This document shows, piece after piece, positions 29,034-48,593 of a stretch of DNA of 64,000 nt. The notes below the pieces were generated by a model, which did no database searches, was not told the DNA's origin, and was given only the letters and a program-made list of their open reading frames with translations. How positions within the stretch are numbered: the stretch's first letter is position 1; each line of letters starts with the position of its first letter. The translations under genes and the position numbers were made by a program. This stretch comes from a virus (taxonomy: Duplodnaviria > Heunggongvirae > Uroviricota > Caudoviricetes): the IMG/VR virus record IMGVR_UViG_2513237251_000009. One strand, given 5' to 3'.

Positions 29034-29240
29034 TTACTCTCCCCGCGCCGCCTTACGCCGGTCTTCTTTAATCTTGAAATACAGGTTCGTCAGATATGTC
29101 AGCAGCCCAAACAGCAGACTCCCCAGCACGCCTATCGCCACCCACTGGGACGGAGAGACTTTGTCCAGCAGCTGCAGTAACCAGTATCCCGTCCCCACCG
29201 CTGACGTGGTGTATGACACACCCGTTGTGATTTTTTCCAT
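29034..29240 (-). CDS. S: Class II holin / pinholin (S21-like)
   Basis: 68 aa, two TM segments, ...[22 protein letters not shown] resembles phage 21 S. Confidence 0.85.
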
Positions 29241-29284
29241 CTGATGTATGTCTCCGTCACCGCCAACAGAAAATGAAAGTAAAG

Positions 29285-29321
29285 GAAAACAAAAAAGCCG
29301 CCAGTGTCACCCACTGACGGC
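29285..29321 (-). terminator. Intrinsic terminator on late strand about 45 nt upstream of holin
   Basis: Minus-strand hairpin gccgtcagtg/cactggcggc followed by TTTTTTGTTTT. Confidence 0.5.
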
Positions 29322-29418
29322 CAACGCCGGGAGCCGTGATTATGGCATTCAGGCTCTGCTAAAAATGCCAGATAACATTCCGGCCTCCCCCGATTCAGGT
29401 TATAAATGACACAATATC

Positions 29419-29538
29419 TTGACAACATCCGTCACTGTCTGTCAGAAAATGTACTGCCATATAGAAGCAACATGTGAAGTACATCTATCCTTTTGAGCCA
29501 GCACCTCTCCACCGAAAGTCAGTGCTGGCTGTTTTTTT
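29419..29538 (+). ncRNA. Candidate small transcription unit 1 (TTGACA box to intrinsic terminator), antisense to late operon
   Basis: TTGACA 29419..29424; hairpin gccagcac/gtgctggc plus T7 at 29497..29538; no ORF. Confidence 0.25.
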
Positions 29539-29586
29539 CCTTAATAAAGCATCTGTAACTGAAACAATCCGCATATTGATAATATA

Positions 29587-29687
29587 TTGACAGGCATCAT
29601 TGCTGTCTGTGAAAAATAAGTCTCTACAAACATATAAGGCCTTTTAGCCAGCGTCTTCTTTTTCAGGTCAGTCGCTGGCTTTTTTTA
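29587..29687 (+). ncRNA. Candidate small transcription unit 2, paralogous to unit 1
   Basis: TTGACA 29587..29592 followed by the same CTGTCTGT box; hairpin agccagcg/cgctggct plus T7 at 29646..29687. Confidence 0.25.
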
Positions 29688-29730
29688 TTATGCTGCCGGT
29701 GCATTTATCTCCAGCATCAGACTTTCTATC

Positions 29731-31539
29731 TCAAACGCCATACGCTGCATTTTTTGTAACATCCGTCAGCGTCAGCGCATTCAGTCCCAGTGTCAGACTG
29801 TCTTTTATAACCTGGAATGCCGGGCCAGCCACTCCATTCAGTTTCGGAGTAACCGTGGCACTGCCGGCGGTGAACACCAGCTCCAGCGTCTGCCAGTCGT
29901 TACCGTAATCGCCGAACTCCCCCAGCTTCGTGTTTCCGGCTTTCCTGTGATGCATCAGATTCACTCTGCCGTCAGTGGTCTGAGTGAAGTACGACATCAG
30001 GAACGGATTACCGGTACCCGTCATCGCCACACCATCAGGAACGGGAGCGTCCGTATACAGATAAATCCCCAGCCCGAACTGATTGTTGGTCAGTGCGCCT
30101 GACAGGCGGAACTTACAGGTCAGTCTGCCGCCCTGTGTCAGCAGGGTAATTGCGTCATCCACCGGATGCGTCAGGGACCAGGTTTTATTGCTCTGCCTGG
30201 TGATCTTAAATACACCATCTGACAACTGAATTCCGCCATCCTTAATGCTCCAGCCCTGCGCAGCAGCCTCTCCGGCTGCCGGCAGCAGGGAGATTGTGCG
30301 AACGGACGTATCTGCAGACGGACCCGATGGCGTGTTGCCGCCGGGCGAGGGTTTGATTTCCGGTGCCTTACCACTGATGAAGGCTGAGGTGCGCCCGGCT
30401 GCGTTCAGAATAGCGGTTGCCAGACGATCCGGAATAATGCTCCTGCGCGCCCATGAACTGAAATGTGTCGGGCGGTTTGATGATACCTGGTTTCCATTCG
30501 TTCTCGATGCCGCACCGTAATATCCTGATGCCGGAATATCCGGATCTTCTGCCGGCGCGTTAGTGGCGGTATTGACGCCGTTACCGTCTGTCATGAAGGG
30601 CACAAAATAAACGCCCTCACTCTCCCTGTTTTTATACCCGCCGTACACGGTGTCGTACTGGGTAGCGTATGTATTTTTCCAGTAATACGTCGTGTCACCA
30701 CAAATCCACGGCACATCTGCAGCACTGCCACCATGGCACTGCGCGTTAAACACGGAGAGGTCAGCACGAAACTGTGTCAGCATGGCTGTAAACAGCGCAG
30801 GTTGCTGTGCGTGGGTGGCGGCGCTCATGTCAAACTCTCCCTGCATCCAGCACACCGCCAGCAACACATTTTTCGGGTTCTTCTGTAATGCAGCTTTGGT
30901 GCGCGCAATCAGGTCCTGATATAACGGTTTACCCACACCCCAGCGCGCCGAATCCTGGCTGGCCCCCGTGGACTCGCTGAATATCCCCTCCGCGCCCTGG
31001 GTAAATGCCGAACCACCACGACAGCATGGTACCAGCAGGATCCCCGCGTTATTCGGGATATACGGGAGCAGTTTTTTGGCAATATGTAACCCCTGGCCGA
31101 CACAGCCGTACTGCCCTTTGCTCAGGTCTGCCTTCGGATGATTCAGCGTACTCATATCCTGCACATCATGCAGGCAGTGGTCGGCCGGAATAATATCGTT
31201 ATATCTGCAGGCAGCCCCACCCGGCGTCACTGTACTGCGGCGCGCCAGCTGTTTAATGCGCGGATCCGGAGCATCGTATGAATCCGGCAGCGGAAGCCCT
31301 TCACCGTAAGCCATGGCATTGGACTGCCCGGCCAGTACGATGACGTAGTACCAATCCGGCTCAGTTGCACCACTGACCACCACATCACCTTCTGCTGTAA
31401 TCGCCTGCATCAGGGTATAAGGGGTTATGGCCACCGGACTACCAAACGGCTGCCAGCCCTCTTTCAGTTTGTGTGTCAGCTTTTCCGCAAGGTCTGACGG
31501 CGACGCCGCCCTGACAACATCATAATGTTTAATCGACAT
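29731..31539 (-). CDS. nanS: Prophage NanS-p-type sialate O-acetylesterase (DUF1737 plus SGNH hydrolase)
   Basis: 602 aa; N-terminal DUF1737-like segment, GQSN block of SGNH esterases; sits upstream of S as yjhS/nanS-p does in Stx phages. Confidence 0.75.
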   Translation of the reverse strand: MSIKHYDVVRAASPSDLAEKLTHKLKEGWQPFGSPVAITPYTLMQAITAEGDVVVSGATEPDWYYVIVLAGQSNAMAYGEGLPLPDSYDAPDPRIKQLARRSTVTPGGAACRYNDIIPADHCLHDVQDMSTLNHPKADLSKGQYGCVGQGLHIAKKLLPYIPNNAGILLVPCCRGGSAFTQGAEGIFSESTGASQDSARWGVGKPLYQDLIARTKAALQKNPKNVLLAVCWMQGEFDMSAATHAQQPALFTAMLTQFRADLSVFNAQCHGGSAADVPWICGDTTYYWKNTYATQYDTVYGGYKNRESEGVYFVPFMTDGNGVNTATNAPAEDPDIPASGYYGAASRTNGNQVSSNRPTHFSSWARRSIIPDRLATAILNAAGRTSAFISGKAPEIKPSPGGNTPSGPSADTSVRTISLLPAAGEAAAQGWSIKDGGIQLSDGVFKITRQSNKTWSLTHPVDDAITLLTQGGRLTCKFRLSGALTNNQFGLGIYLYTDAPVPDGVAMTGTGNPFLMSYFTQTTDGRVNLMHHRKAGNTKLGEFGDYGNDWQTLELVFTAGSATVTPKLNGVAGPAFQVIKDSLTLGLNALTLTDVTKNAAYGV

Positions 31540-31852
31540 CGAATTTCTCCCGTGTACAGGAACAGAGTTAAAAAGCCGGAACCGGAATCAAATCACAGGA
31601 TGACCATCTGCCAGTGGCTGGTCGTAAAAAAAAGCCGCGCCATGCGCAGCCGGAAATAAAGGGATAACGATGATAGTTTGAGAAAAACAGAAACAACACT
31701 TTTGTGGCAAAGCATGGTGCCGGGTGCCTCCCGGTGAATTCAGTATCAGCACCTGAATCCGCGATTATCCCATATACCTGGTTGCTGATCGCCCCTCCGC
31801 ACAGGGGGATTCACCATGCAGAAGTGTTTTTAATAAACAGCAAACAAAAAAA

Positions 31853-32617: not shown

Positions 32618-32694
32618 TGGCGCGTTGTAGTGGAGTCGAACCACTGACCGATTGCTTAGAAGGCAATTGCTCTGTCCGGCTGAGCTAACAACGC
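32618..32694 (-). tRNA. argO: tRNA-Arg (anticodon TCT)
   Basis: 77 nt, 7-bp acceptor stem GCGTTGT/ACAACGC, anticodon loop CTTCTAA, T-arm GGTTCGACTCC, encoded CCA; terminator hairpin downstream. Confidence 0.85.
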
Positions 32695-32794
32695 AGAATA
32701 CCGATAATGGACCGCCATCGGGGACCCGGCCCCGCACCAACAACCCTGTTATGGTGTCGTCTGCTCTTCCTGATAAGCTAATGGCGGTTTGTGA

Positions 32795-32870
32795 TGGTGG
32801 CCCTTGCTGGATTTGAACCAGCGACCTGGCGATTATGAGTCGCTCGCTCTCACCACTGAGCTAAAGGGCC
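32795..32870 (-). tRNA. ileZ: tRNA with CAT anticodon (Ile2-lysidine type or Met)
   Basis: 76 nt, acceptor GGCCCTT/AAGGGCC, anticodon loop CTCATAA, T-arm GGTTCAAATCC, encoded CCA. Confidence 0.8.
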
Positions 32871-32898: not shown

Positions 32899-33612
32899 TC
32901 AATAATCAAGCCCTTGCCTGGATACATATCTGTCTGGCGGGAAGCCATAATAGCGGTGAAATACAGAAATAAAGTAGGACCGGCTTGAATAACCACATTT
33001 TTCTGCTACAGCCTGTCCATATCCATACCGGGAACATAACATATTTACAGCAACACGCATCCGCTCTTCCAGCAACAAGCGACTGAACATGCCCCCTTCA
33101 TTTTTCAGTTTTGTCTTTAACAAACTCTCACTCATATGCAACTGTAGAGCAATCGCACCAAGCGTCCAGCTTGCTGATATATCTGTCTGAATTATCGCCC
33201 TGACTTTGGCACTTATGCTGGATAAACATCCACTTAAAAACAATGACATCCGTTCATCTGTTTCAAACAGAGACAGGCAGGCCATCATAAGAAACATATC
33301 CGTGACCTCTCCGGAAAATCCCTGGCTGGTAATTAAAGCCGCAGCCAACGCAGGATTGTTGGGTTCCAGCAACAGGTAAAGCGGAATGTCAGTCAGACGA
33401 GTCCTCGTCAGCTTATGCTGACTTTCCAGATATTGACTTACGACGGATTCGCTTATATCGACAATTTTAACTTTGCCATAATGCATAAGGAAAAGCTCCC
33501 TGATGCATTTGGTGGCCAGAACGACTGAGCCTGGCTTAAGTGACAACGTATCCTTTTCAAGAAAAATATTAATTGGGGAGCAAACCATGATAACTGAACA
33601 GACAACAGCCAT
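32899..33612 (-). CDS. AraC/XylS-family transcriptional regulator (prophage cargo)
   Basis: 237 aa with C-terminal double HTH (...YSSRSYFISVFHRYYGFPP). Confidence 0.8.
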   Translation of the reverse strand: MAVVCSVIMVCSPINIFLEKDTLSLKPGSVVLATKCIRELFLMHYGKVKIVDISESVVSQYLESQHKLTRTRLTDIPLYLLLEPNNPALAAALITSQGFSGEVTDMFLMMACLSLFETDERMSLFLSGCLSSISAKVRAIIQTDISASWTLGAIALQLHMSESLLKTKLKNEGGMFSRLLLEERMRVAVNMLCSRYGYGQAVAEKCGYSSRSYFISVFHRYYGFPPDRYVSRQGLDY

Positions 33613-37013: not shown

Positions 37014-37169
37014 TTACTTCTCAGATTCGTAGTCTACGAAGACAGCGACCTCCGTCTGACCGGTTCGGATTCGCACCTCGCAGAGGTCTTTCCTCGTTAC
37101 CAGTGCCGTCACTATGACGGTTAAACAGATGACGATCAGGGCGATTAACATCGCCTTTTGCTGCTTCAT
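37014..37169 (-). CDS. hokD: Hok/Gef-family type I toxin (HokD/RelF-like)
   Basis: 51 aa MKQQKAMLIALIVICLTVIVTALVTRKDLCEVRIRTGQTEVAVF... nearly identical to K-12 HokD as recalled. Confidence 0.85.
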   Translation of the reverse strand: MKQQKAMLIALIVICLTVIVTALVTRKDLCEVRIRTGQTEVAVFVDYESEK

Positions 37170-37459
37170 AGCCTGCTTCTCCTTGCCTTTCGGCACGTAA
37201 GAGGCTAACCTACATGTGTTCAGCATGGATTGAGCCTCAGATTAATGTTAAGCGTCTTGCAGGACGCGTAATGTTAACTGGGGCTTTTCTCTATCTGCCG
37301 TTGGTGTTCATGCCCGAGGCAGATAGCCTCAAGCACCCGCAGCAATTCTACTTAACTATCCTTTTCCCGCAAACCGTTTTTATCCCCAGCGGCAAATCGA
37401 ATACACCACCAGCGCCACCGCCATCGCAATTCCTACCGTTGTGAATGCTTCAGGCCAGG

Positions 37460-44546: not shown

Positions 44547-44604
44547 TTTCTGGTGACGTTTGGCGGTATCAGTTTTACTCCGTGGCTGCTCTGCCGCCCT
44601 TTTT
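44547..44604 (+). ncRNA. dicF: DicF small RNA
   Basis: tttctggtgacgtttggcggtatcagttttactccgtggctgctctgccgcccttttt matches K-12 DicF as recalled, one substitution; ends in an intrinsic terminator. Confidence 0.75.
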
Positions 44605-47379: not shown

Positions 47380-48270
47380 TCAGGCTGCCAGATCATCGTT
47401 TCCGATGGAAGCATAATAAGCTTTTTCTGCTTCTGCCGGAGGAGTATGGCCCAGCCTTCCCAGCAATCGTCGATTGTTATACCAGTCCACCCACGTTAGT
47501 GTGGCCAGTTCCACTTCTGCACGGTTTTTCCAGCTCTTACGGTGTATTACCTCCGCTTTGTAAAGACCATTGATGCTCTCAGCCATCGCGTTGTCATACG
47601 AGTCGCCTGTACTCCCTGTTGATGCCAGTAATCCGGCTTCTTTTAGTCGCTCCGTATAGGCCAGTGACACATACTGAGAGCCTTTATCGCTGTGATGGAT
47701 GGTGCCAGACGGACGACGGGCCCACAACGCCTGCTCCAGCGCATCCAGCACGAATGTCGTTTCCATAGACGATGAGACCCGCCACCCCACGATGTATCCG
47801 GCAAACACATCAATGATAAACGCCACATAGACGAAGCCCTGCCATGTGCTGACGTAAGTAAAATCAGCCACCCACAGCTGGTCAGGTCGTTCTGCCACGA
47901 ACTGACGGTTTACGCGGTCGCCTGCGGCAACGGCTTTCCGGCTGATGGTCGTACGGACCTTTTTACCCCGGAGAACACCGGCAAGTCCCATAACCGCCAT
48001 GAGACGTGCCACTGTACATCTGGCCACCCTGATTCCTTCCCGTAACAACTGACGCCAGACTTTACGCACACCGTACACCTGATGATTTTCATCGTATACG
48101 CGCTGTATCTCTCTCTTCAGCCAGTCGTCGTGCTGCGCACGGGCACTGCGTTTATCCGGATGATGTCGCTGTTGCTGACAATGGTAATACGTTGACGGGG
48201 CAATATGCAGTTCGCTGCATACCGGTCCGACCCCGTACTGCTCACGCAGCTTATCCAGCAGTGGCATCAT
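47380..48270 (-). CDS. IS629 transposase OrfB (DDE integrase domain)
   Basis: 296-aa IS3-family orfB. Confidence 0.85.
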
Positions 48271-48593
48271 TTTTTCCAGAGGCGGTCGAACTCCGCCTTC
48301 GCAAAATAAGCGGAAGCCTGGCGAAGGATATCGTTACTGCGGCGCAGTTCACGATTTTCACGTTCCAGCTCTTTCAGACGCTGACGTTCAGCGCTGGTGA
48401 GCCCACCATCACCGCCCCCGGTATCCCGCTCATGCTGGCGAACCCAGACACGCAGAGTCTCCGGCGTACAGCCAATCTTTGGGGCAATGGAACAAATTGC
48501 CGCCCACTGTGAGTCATATTCATCCTGACTTTCCAGAACCATACGAATCGCCCGCTGACGGACTTCGGGGGAAAAACGAGTATTTTTAGTCAT
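48267..48593 (-). CDS. IS629 OrfA (HTH)
   Basis: 108-aa IS3-family orfA, overlaps orfB. Confidence 0.85.

Follow-up and report, generated by a model that had tools for sequence, protein, structure and literature searches.

The two units described here lie in the late region of the window, by which we mean the whole 64,000-nt stretch of DNA that was analysed, within the gap between an esterase and a holin gene of a lambdoid O157-type prophage (Table 1). A sequence-only reading had named the flanking genes nanS-p and S, and Pfam matches of the two ORFs agree, giving a SASA esterase and a class II holin. It had also described a gap of 490 bp without an ORF. That length holds for the present allele, in which a 1-nt insertion near 29733 (CTCAAACGCC here, CTCAACGCC in Sakai Sp12 and phage 434) shifts the frame of the last ~14 esterase codons and thereby places the ORF stop at 29731, but other copies have a gap of 447 bp. 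The usual esterase TAA is found at 29688–29690 and directly adjoins the T-run of the second unit. ORFs within the gap are all short, at most 53 aa. Several O157:H7 genomes share the esterase frameshift allele. Compared with the equivalent gap of E2348/69 PP2, only a few positions differ.

A late-strand intrinsic terminator lies just upstream of the holin gene, is present in all variants, and is annotated as a terminator at the equivalent position in the phage 434 record. It is convergent with the first unit. This terminator is likely the 3′ end of esterase transcripts in lysogens and, by ending these moron transcripts, probably keeps the holin unexpressed there. An esterase 3′ UTR ending at this point is fully antisense to the RNAs of both units. 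A promoter-like site on the minus strand, CAGACA-17-TATATT at 29581–29609, sits back to back over the putative promoter of the second unit; it would read toward the holin, its transcript ending at the 29286–29322 terminator. Upstream of the esterase gene, Rfam identified an STnc100/PasD-type sRNA, so that the order pasD, esterase, pasA is the arrangement described for EPEC PP2. A recent preprint likewise reports that pasA and pasC adjoin holin/lysozyme genes, with a PasD/STnc100-type RNA beyond the esterase (Zhu, Shabalina & Storz 2026). Rfam called no AsxR/AgvB-type convergent partner adjoining STnc100 in the window.

Table 1. Features of the esterase–holin gap and its surroundings in the window.
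Feature	Position	Strand	Basis and remarks
Holin, class II P21-type	29034–29240	minus	Pfam match of flanking ORF
Late-strand intrinsic terminator, 11-bp stem + UUUUUUGUUUU	29286–29322	minus	consensus scan and fold
Putative pasA (unit 1) promoter	29419–29448	plus	−35 TTGACA 29419–24; 18-nt spacer; −10 CAGAAA 29443–48
PasA sRNA, major 85-nt form	29454–29538	plus	85/85 identical to E2348/69 PasA
PasA read-through isoform, "minor", 236 nt, spanning both units	29454–29689	plus	235/236 identical
Unit-1 (PasA) intrinsic terminator, AGCCAGCAC...GUGCUGGCU, 9–11 bp stem + U7	29496–29538	plus	fold
Alternative unit-2 promoter candidate, CTGAAA-18-TATATT	29559 (CTGAAA), 29583–88 (TATATT)	plus	consensus scan
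Putative unit-2 promoter	29587–29616	plus	−35 TTGACA 29587–92; 18-nt spacer; CTGTCTGT 29603–10; −10 GAAAAA/AAAAAT 29611–17
Unit-2 RNA, ~66 nt	~29621–29686	plus	CRAC peaks EcOnc51/EcOnc52; RIL-seq pasA.E2348C_0688.IGR
Unit-2 intrinsic terminator, AGCCAGCG...CGCUGGCU + U6–7	29646–29686	plus	fold; adjoins canonical esterase stop 29688–90
Esterase mRNA 3′-end motif CUGAUGCUGGA, complementary to PasA seed	29710–29720	minus	motif list, PMC8550237
Esterase, SASA/DUF1737/DUF6645, nanS-p type	29731–31539	minus	Pfam match of flanking ORF
STnc100/PasD-type sRNA	31676–31848	minus	Rfam, 104.7 bits; upstream of esterase gene
tRNA-Arg(UCU) and tRNA-Met genes	32618–32870	minus	late-region moron site
AraC-family regulator ORF (HTH_AraC/HTH_18)	32899–33612	minus	after tRNA genes, late-region moron site
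sok antitoxin RNA	37164–37338	minus	Rfam
DicF	44548–44599	plus	Rfam
ALIL frameshift pseudoknot (IS3-family element)	48196–48312	minus	Rfam

Both units are on the plus strand, opposite to the late operon. Each has a TTGACA hexamer followed 10 nt later by a CTGTCTGT box (29435–29442 in unit 1, 29603–29610 in unit 2), just where the sequence-only reading had seen them. TTGACA-N10-CTGTCTGT is found twice without mismatch in the 64-kb window, where 0.03 occurrences would be expected, and none of 100 shuffles contained two or more. Global alignment of 29407–29540 with 29575–29689 scores 79.5, while 1000 dinucleotide shuffles gave 31.9 ± 5.3 and a best score of 52 (z = 9.0). Because the alignment lies 9 SD above the shuffles, the units are paralogs, as had been proposed, and not mere look-alikes. 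Promoters for both are inferred from a common layout: a −35 TTGACA, an 18-nt spacer ending in TGT, and a weak −10, A-rich in unit 2. In unit 1 the spacer ends in CTGTCTGT, and the last TGT of the box supplies the TGn of an extended −10. The −10 hexamers of both units are poor (3/6) and fail the rule of the consensus scanner, which for that reason called neither TTGACA promoter; the earlier caution about weak −10 elements was justified. Among 63 unique IMG/VR variants the unit-1 promoter element hardly varies, with the conservation of 29407–29426 being by construction because this stretch served as the search anchor. A LexA-box or Fur-box reading of the CTGTCTGT and TTGATAATATATTGACA segments was dropped, as no match was seen by eye.

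Folding confirmed an intrinsic terminator at the end of each unit, close to the 29497..29538 and 29646..29687 proposed before. The consensus scan caught the unit-2 terminator only partially because of its loop-size limit, and folding was therefore used. The predicted 66-nt RNA of unit 2 folds at −16.5 kcal/mol (z = −3.5 versus shuffles). The T-runs are on the plus strand, and no U-run follows either hairpin on the minus strand, so the transcripts would be antisense to the late mRNA. Covariation in homologous prophage regions, which the sequence-only reading had put forward as a check, supports the stem: across PasA, PasA-2, a T-A variant, PasC, and unit 2, a handful of lineages in all, the ten-pair stem is 94% paired, with four of the ten pairs kept by double changes. 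Its covariation score was reached by none of 500 shuffles, and controls with a slid register dropped to 20–55% paired. Rfam 15, including AsxR (RF02703) and AgvB (RF02702), was run at the gathering threshold over the whole window and at E ≤ 10 over 29200–29760. In the latter interval there was no gathering-level match, and the best matches were unrelated, at 18 bits or less. PasA is therefore absent from Rfam 15.

By its sequence, unit 1 is the already-described pathogenicity-associated sRNA A, PasA, and its detection from the letters alone was a correct rediscovery. The 85 nt at 29454–29538 are identical to NC_011601 743499→743415 on the minus strand. These are the coordinates of the major form of PasA in EPEC E2348/69; a minor 236-nt form extends to 743264 (Table S6, PMC8550237). 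Northern blots of PasA show the corresponding major 85-nt and minor 236-nt bands (PMC8550237), and the published probe, GCCAGCACTGACTTTCGGTGGAGAG, is the exact reverse complement of window ~29507–29531, in the unit-1 terminator loop. The location agrees as well, with SASA esterase and class II holin flanks and an antisense orientation, matching the annotation of the E2348/69 locus. The start predicted from the unit-1 promoter, at ~29454–56, falls on the published 5′ end (29454), which rests on coverage and Northern size, not on 5′-triphosphate mapping (PMC8550237). PasA has also been described as a processing product (Zhu, Shabalina & Storz 2026 preprint). In Table S6 of PMC8550237, however, the 85-nt and 236-nt forms share a single 5′ end and differ in their 3′ ends, a pattern that means 3′ read-through and not 5′ processing. 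The window and EPEC PP2 thus have flanks, orientation, terminator, seed, and a downstream second hairpin giving the 236-nt isoform in common, while the host background (O157-type prophage) and the frameshifted esterase tail differ; the PasA sequence itself is the same.

In EPEC, PasA abundance is lower in an hfq deletion (log2FC −2.8), and RIL-seq found 41 partners, none of them an sRNA and 36 of them CDS or 5′UTR across the genome, with PasA in the RNA2 position in 94–100% of fragments (PMC8550237). Given that these experiments concern the identical sequence, the PasA of the window would be expected to depend on Hfq for its accumulation and to pair with mRNAs through Hfq. The seed proposed for PasA, GCCAGCACCU (Fig. 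S5, PMC8550237), is located at window 29497–29506, within the 5′ arm of the terminator. The motif CUGAUGCUGGA near the 3′ end of the esterase mRNA has been reported as a PasA RIL-seq target site (Table S7-type list, PMC8550237). As read from the sequence, the seed and the esterase motif pair over 6 bp here and over 8 bp in CACCAG alleles.

Unit 2 constitutes the 3′ part of the published 236-nt "minor" isoform of PasA. As this isoform ends at the unit-2 terminator, read-through of the PasA terminator is an experimental fact for the identical sequence. The 3′ end of unit 2 also has a RIL-seq entry of its own, pasA.E2348C_0688.IGR, with fragments at 743267–743294 (PMC8550237), which map to the unit-2 terminator. 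None of its partners is an sRNA. The entry has five partners including escD, a U7 tract, and 100% RNA2 position, features by which the authors themselves recognise an sRNA, but a footnote merges it with PasA, and the same table names EcOnc51 and EcOnc52 as EHEC "homologues" (PMC8550237). Duplexes predicted between the escD fragment from RIL-seq and either unit 2 or PasA were not stronger than those of shuffled sRNAs (z about −0.2 to −0.5).

EcOnc51 (2237479–2237555, plus strand, Sp12) and EcOnc52 (1181998–1182075, minus strand, Sp4) are Hfq-CRAC peaks of EHEC Sakai (PMC4104026). The coordinates of Tree et al. 2014 refer to an older Sakai sequence than NC_002695.2. In the current record the Rfam matches to AsxR and AgvB lie +135 to +146 nt away from the corresponding CRAC peaks, and features of Sp4 at 1.18 Mb show zero displacement versus the published peaks. 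For Sp12 we took an offset of +139 nt, inferred by calibration on AsxR/AgvB and extrapolated to 2.24 Mb from 1.27 and 1.94 Mb. With this offset, EcOnc51 has the same sequence as EcOnc52, running from TCTCTACAAACA (window 29621) to ~11 nt beyond the unit-2 T-run. EcOnc52 maps straight onto unit 2 with no offset. Both peaks are therefore unit 2 and not PasA proper; assignment of EcOnc51 to PasA-2 was ruled out by the same calibration. Unit 2 of the window and the Sakai CRAC sequence differ only in the loop, where there is a TT indel, and at one base of the T-run. CRAC AUCs at Sp4 and Sp12 are nearly equal and the reads are multi-mapping (PMC4104026), which fits multi-mapping of one RNA. EcOnc51 and EcOnc52 were catalogued as separate, unvalidated candidates, with no Northern, promoter, or relation to PasA (PMC4104026). 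As a side observation, EcOnc coordinates are ~139 nt short of NC_002695.2 from between 1.18 and 1.27 Mb onward (L003, L004, L228, and L229 in our locus list), and EcOnc sRNAs placed on that record uncorrected are mis-assigned.

The sequence-only reading had suggested antisense or trans-acting prophage sRNAs. With unit 1 being the Hfq-dependent PasA and unit 2 an Hfq-bound RNA in two published data sets obtained independently, both units are real, already catalogued Hfq-binding sRNAs, and unit 2 is a little-noticed tandem paralog.

Whether unit 2 starts on its own has to be weighed against read-through from unit 1. With a −35 and extended −10 in the layout of unit 1, it looks like a self-contained tandem paralog whose own promoter probably yields a ~66-nt RNA in addition. 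The CRAC peak has its 5′ boundary at 29621, where the paralogous promoter would place the start. In RIL-seq, chimeric fragments of unit 2 amount to 2.4% of those of PasA in activating medium and to 47% in non-activating medium (PMC8550237), which argues against a constant read-through fraction. Unit 2 follows unit 1 in 97 of 107 IMG/VR copies, and it is also found without it. In Sakai Sp4 only unit 2 is kept; an IS629 element ends 22 nt upstream of the unit-2 −35, and its transposase reads in the other direction. On plasmids, too, unit 2 stands by itself, and in a ~90%-identical copy all 36 positions from −35 to +1 are identical. Because the CRAC reads are multi-mapping, the Sp4 locus is no proof of an independent start. 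At least four different rearrangement or IS junctions fall 9–25 nt upstream of the unit-2 −35 and leave unit 2 intact. The clustering is due either to selection for the retention of unit 2 or to the AT-rich CATATTGATAATATA segment being a hot spot for insertions. The junction loci are L099, L120, L232, and L246 in IMG/VR and L004 in Sakai Sp4.

The contrary reading, implicit in Pearl Mizrahi et al. 2021 (PMC8550237), is that unit 2 is no gene of its own but a back-up terminator, the Hfq-bound RNA being the 3′ end or a processed fragment of PasA read-through. The 236-nt band hybridises with the unit-1 probe, and the authors give both entries as one candidate (PMC8550237). The −10 candidates of unit 2 are weak, a promoter-like alternative exists at 29559–29588, and the CRAC reads from unit 2 are those that multi-map. 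Simple read-through does not sit well, however, with the repetition in unit 2 of the whole unit-1 design, −35 and TGn box included, at z = 9. The 20-fold difference in fragment ratio between conditions also speaks against it, as do the intact unit 2 with an unchanged promoter segment in Sp4, plasmids, and several junctions lacking unit 1, and the beginning of the CRAC peak at the start that the paralog predicts. Taken together, we regard read-through alone as a possible but rather doubtful account of unit 2.

Prophage contigs in IMG/VR show three layouts of the esterase–holin sRNA locus: two units as in the window, with PasA-type or PasA-2-type 5′ bodies; a single PasC-type unit; and a single unit with a PasA-like hairpin in which one C-G pair has turned U-A. 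The bare 14-base box pattern gave mainly chance matches in IMG/VR, and longer anchors yielded the usable set. Among unit-1 copies in this set, variation is ~0.13 per column in the transcribed 5′ body versus ~0.02 in the upstream and promoter region, part of the upstream region being the search anchor. PasC of EPEC E2348/69 PP5 is a single 79-nt unit, as opposed to the two units of the window. Its promoter and first ~45 nt are the same as in PasA; they are followed by a hairpin with the stem of unit 2, AGCCAGCG/CGCUGGCU, and like unit 2, PasC lies directly at the esterase stop. Unit 2 did not align over the full 79 nt of PasC, sharing with it only the flank TTTTAGCCAGCG and an 8-bp stem; the 5′ body and loop differ. 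In one IMG/VR locus (L153) a unit-2 5′ body is joined to a PasC-type hairpin, which shows the terminators of PasC and unit 2 to be allelic and to recombine.

On this comparison of sequences, PasC is likely a deletion chimera that arose between repeated CCnTTTTAGCCAGC segments of a two-unit ancestor. For the full scenario, in which tandem duplication of pasA made unit 2 a third, independently transcribed member of the PasA/PasC family and a CCnTTTTAGCCAGC deletion produced PasC, we would put the chances at about even. According to the preprint of Zhu, Shabalina & Storz (2026), no copies of pasA are tandem duplicates, which is true for BLAST-recognisable copies; unit 2 is overlooked there. The modest novelty beyond the literature is twofold: unit 2 is probably a self-contained tandem paralog, and PasC is likely a deletion chimera.

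We consider it highly probable that the gap is an sRNA cassette opposite the late operon, made up of the trans-acting, Hfq-dependent PasA and a diverged tandem copy. In such a cassette, a strong −35 with a TGn-extended weak −10 would start PasA near 29454, and the hairpin and U7 at 29496–29538 would end it. The U-tail and hairpin would bind Hfq. The seed, which lies in the terminator's 5′ arm and its surroundings, would pair in trans with many mRNAs, among them that of the adjacent esterase at its 3′ end. Unit 2 would be a copy of the same design with an Hfq-bound, sRNA-like 3′ end, reached partly through read-through of the PasA terminator as in the 236-nt isoform and probably also from its own promoter. 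Any physiological role of the two units is putative.

A mainly cis-acting role would have the plus-strand RNAs pair with the esterase 3′ UTR or the holin leader and tune esterase mRNA stability or the lysis genes, trans action being secondary. Both RNAs are fully complementary to late-strand RNA running from the esterase stop to 29286–29322, such RNA was detected in the EPEC RIL-seq as pasA.E2348C_0689.IGR, and PasA–esterase chimeras are among the top PasA targets (PMC8550237). The reported PasA–esterase site, however, is in the CDS, outside the antisense overlap, and uses a seed common to unrelated core-genome targets (PMC8550237). Together with the 36 CDS/5′UTR partners of PasA genome-wide, this makes a mainly cis-acting role unlikely. 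As both RNAs are perfectly complementary to the esterase 3′ UTR, a cis-antisense contribution beside trans action may exist, and nothing demands it.

It is also conceivable that the hairpins are insulators against antisense transcription from the lysis-cassette side into the esterase/moron region and that the RNAs are by-products. Two serial terminators do resemble a fail-safe, and the phage 434 annotators labelled the hairpins merely terminators. But a conserved TTGACA/TGn box of its own stands at a fixed distance before each hairpin, and PasA accumulates in an Hfq-dependent way with specific partners. Variation, moreover, is concentrated in the 5′ body of the transcript, with both promoter and terminator conserved, and we find an insulator function very unlikely. 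Hardly more than a formal possibility is that these are bidirectional terminators for late-strand read-through, which the sequence-only reading itself had named as the outcome that would overturn it. Hairpins are symmetric in principle, but the minus-strand flanks after them, CAAAAGGA and AAAAGGCC, read CAAAAGG and AAAAGGC, and the reading fails because no minus-strand U-run follows either hairpin. A dedicated late-strand terminator stands 170 nt further on. Q-modified late transcription would ignore such terminators, as in lambda. Anti-sRNA sponges of the AsxR/AgvB type, titrating core sRNAs, are highly improbable in turn. The prophage neighbourhood, small size, Hfq binding, and variable 5′ and conserved 3′ parts are shared with AsxR/AgvB, but the gap has no Rfam match to either, RIL-seq found no sRNA partners for PasA or unit 2, and AsxR/AgvB are located on the opposite side of the esterase gene. 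PasA acting in trans beside its diverged copy remains our preferred reading.

AsxR/AgvB and STnc100/PasD are likewise short Hfq-binding prophage RNAs convergent with late-strand RNAs. All of them differ from PasA in locus and sequence family; AsxR and AgvB bind sRNAs, whereas PasA binds mRNAs. OmrA/OmrB and PrrF1/PrrF2 are tandemly duplicated sRNA pairs. They are cited as such in the preprint of Zhu, Shabalina & Storz (2026). Like the units of the window, they are adjacent same-strand promoter-to-terminator units with shared 3′ ends, diverged 5′ parts, and longer read-through species; they have no sequence relation to the window units, and for unit 2 independent transcription is putative.

Few accessory-genome sRNAs of EPEC have as many connections as PasA, whose partners include type III secretion and bfp genes. 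Current catalogues subsume unit 2 under PasA or list it as a CRAC peak without a name; it may be a regulator in its own right. If unit 2 is independent, the gap of Stx-type phages would be a two-gene sRNA cassette with differentially expressed members, the RIL-seq targets listed for "PasA" would mix two regulators, and the published claim of no tandem pasA duplicates would be contradicted. Annotation should not leave the gap empty but enter it as pasA with a downstream paralog. In phage 434, the annotators marked all three terminators and no RNA gene. Among species-representative genomes, the paired boxes are found only in E. albertii, the other matches being chance ones. The gap is present in 698 of 5426 complete E. 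coli genomes, at a median of six places per genome, and O157:H7 strains carry it at 100% identity. It also occurs in 29 deposited phage records, among them 22 Stx1a-converting phages, YYZ-2008, H-19B, and phage 434; an identical pasA in O157-type prophages, Stx1 phages, and phage 434 points to wide travel of this regulator.
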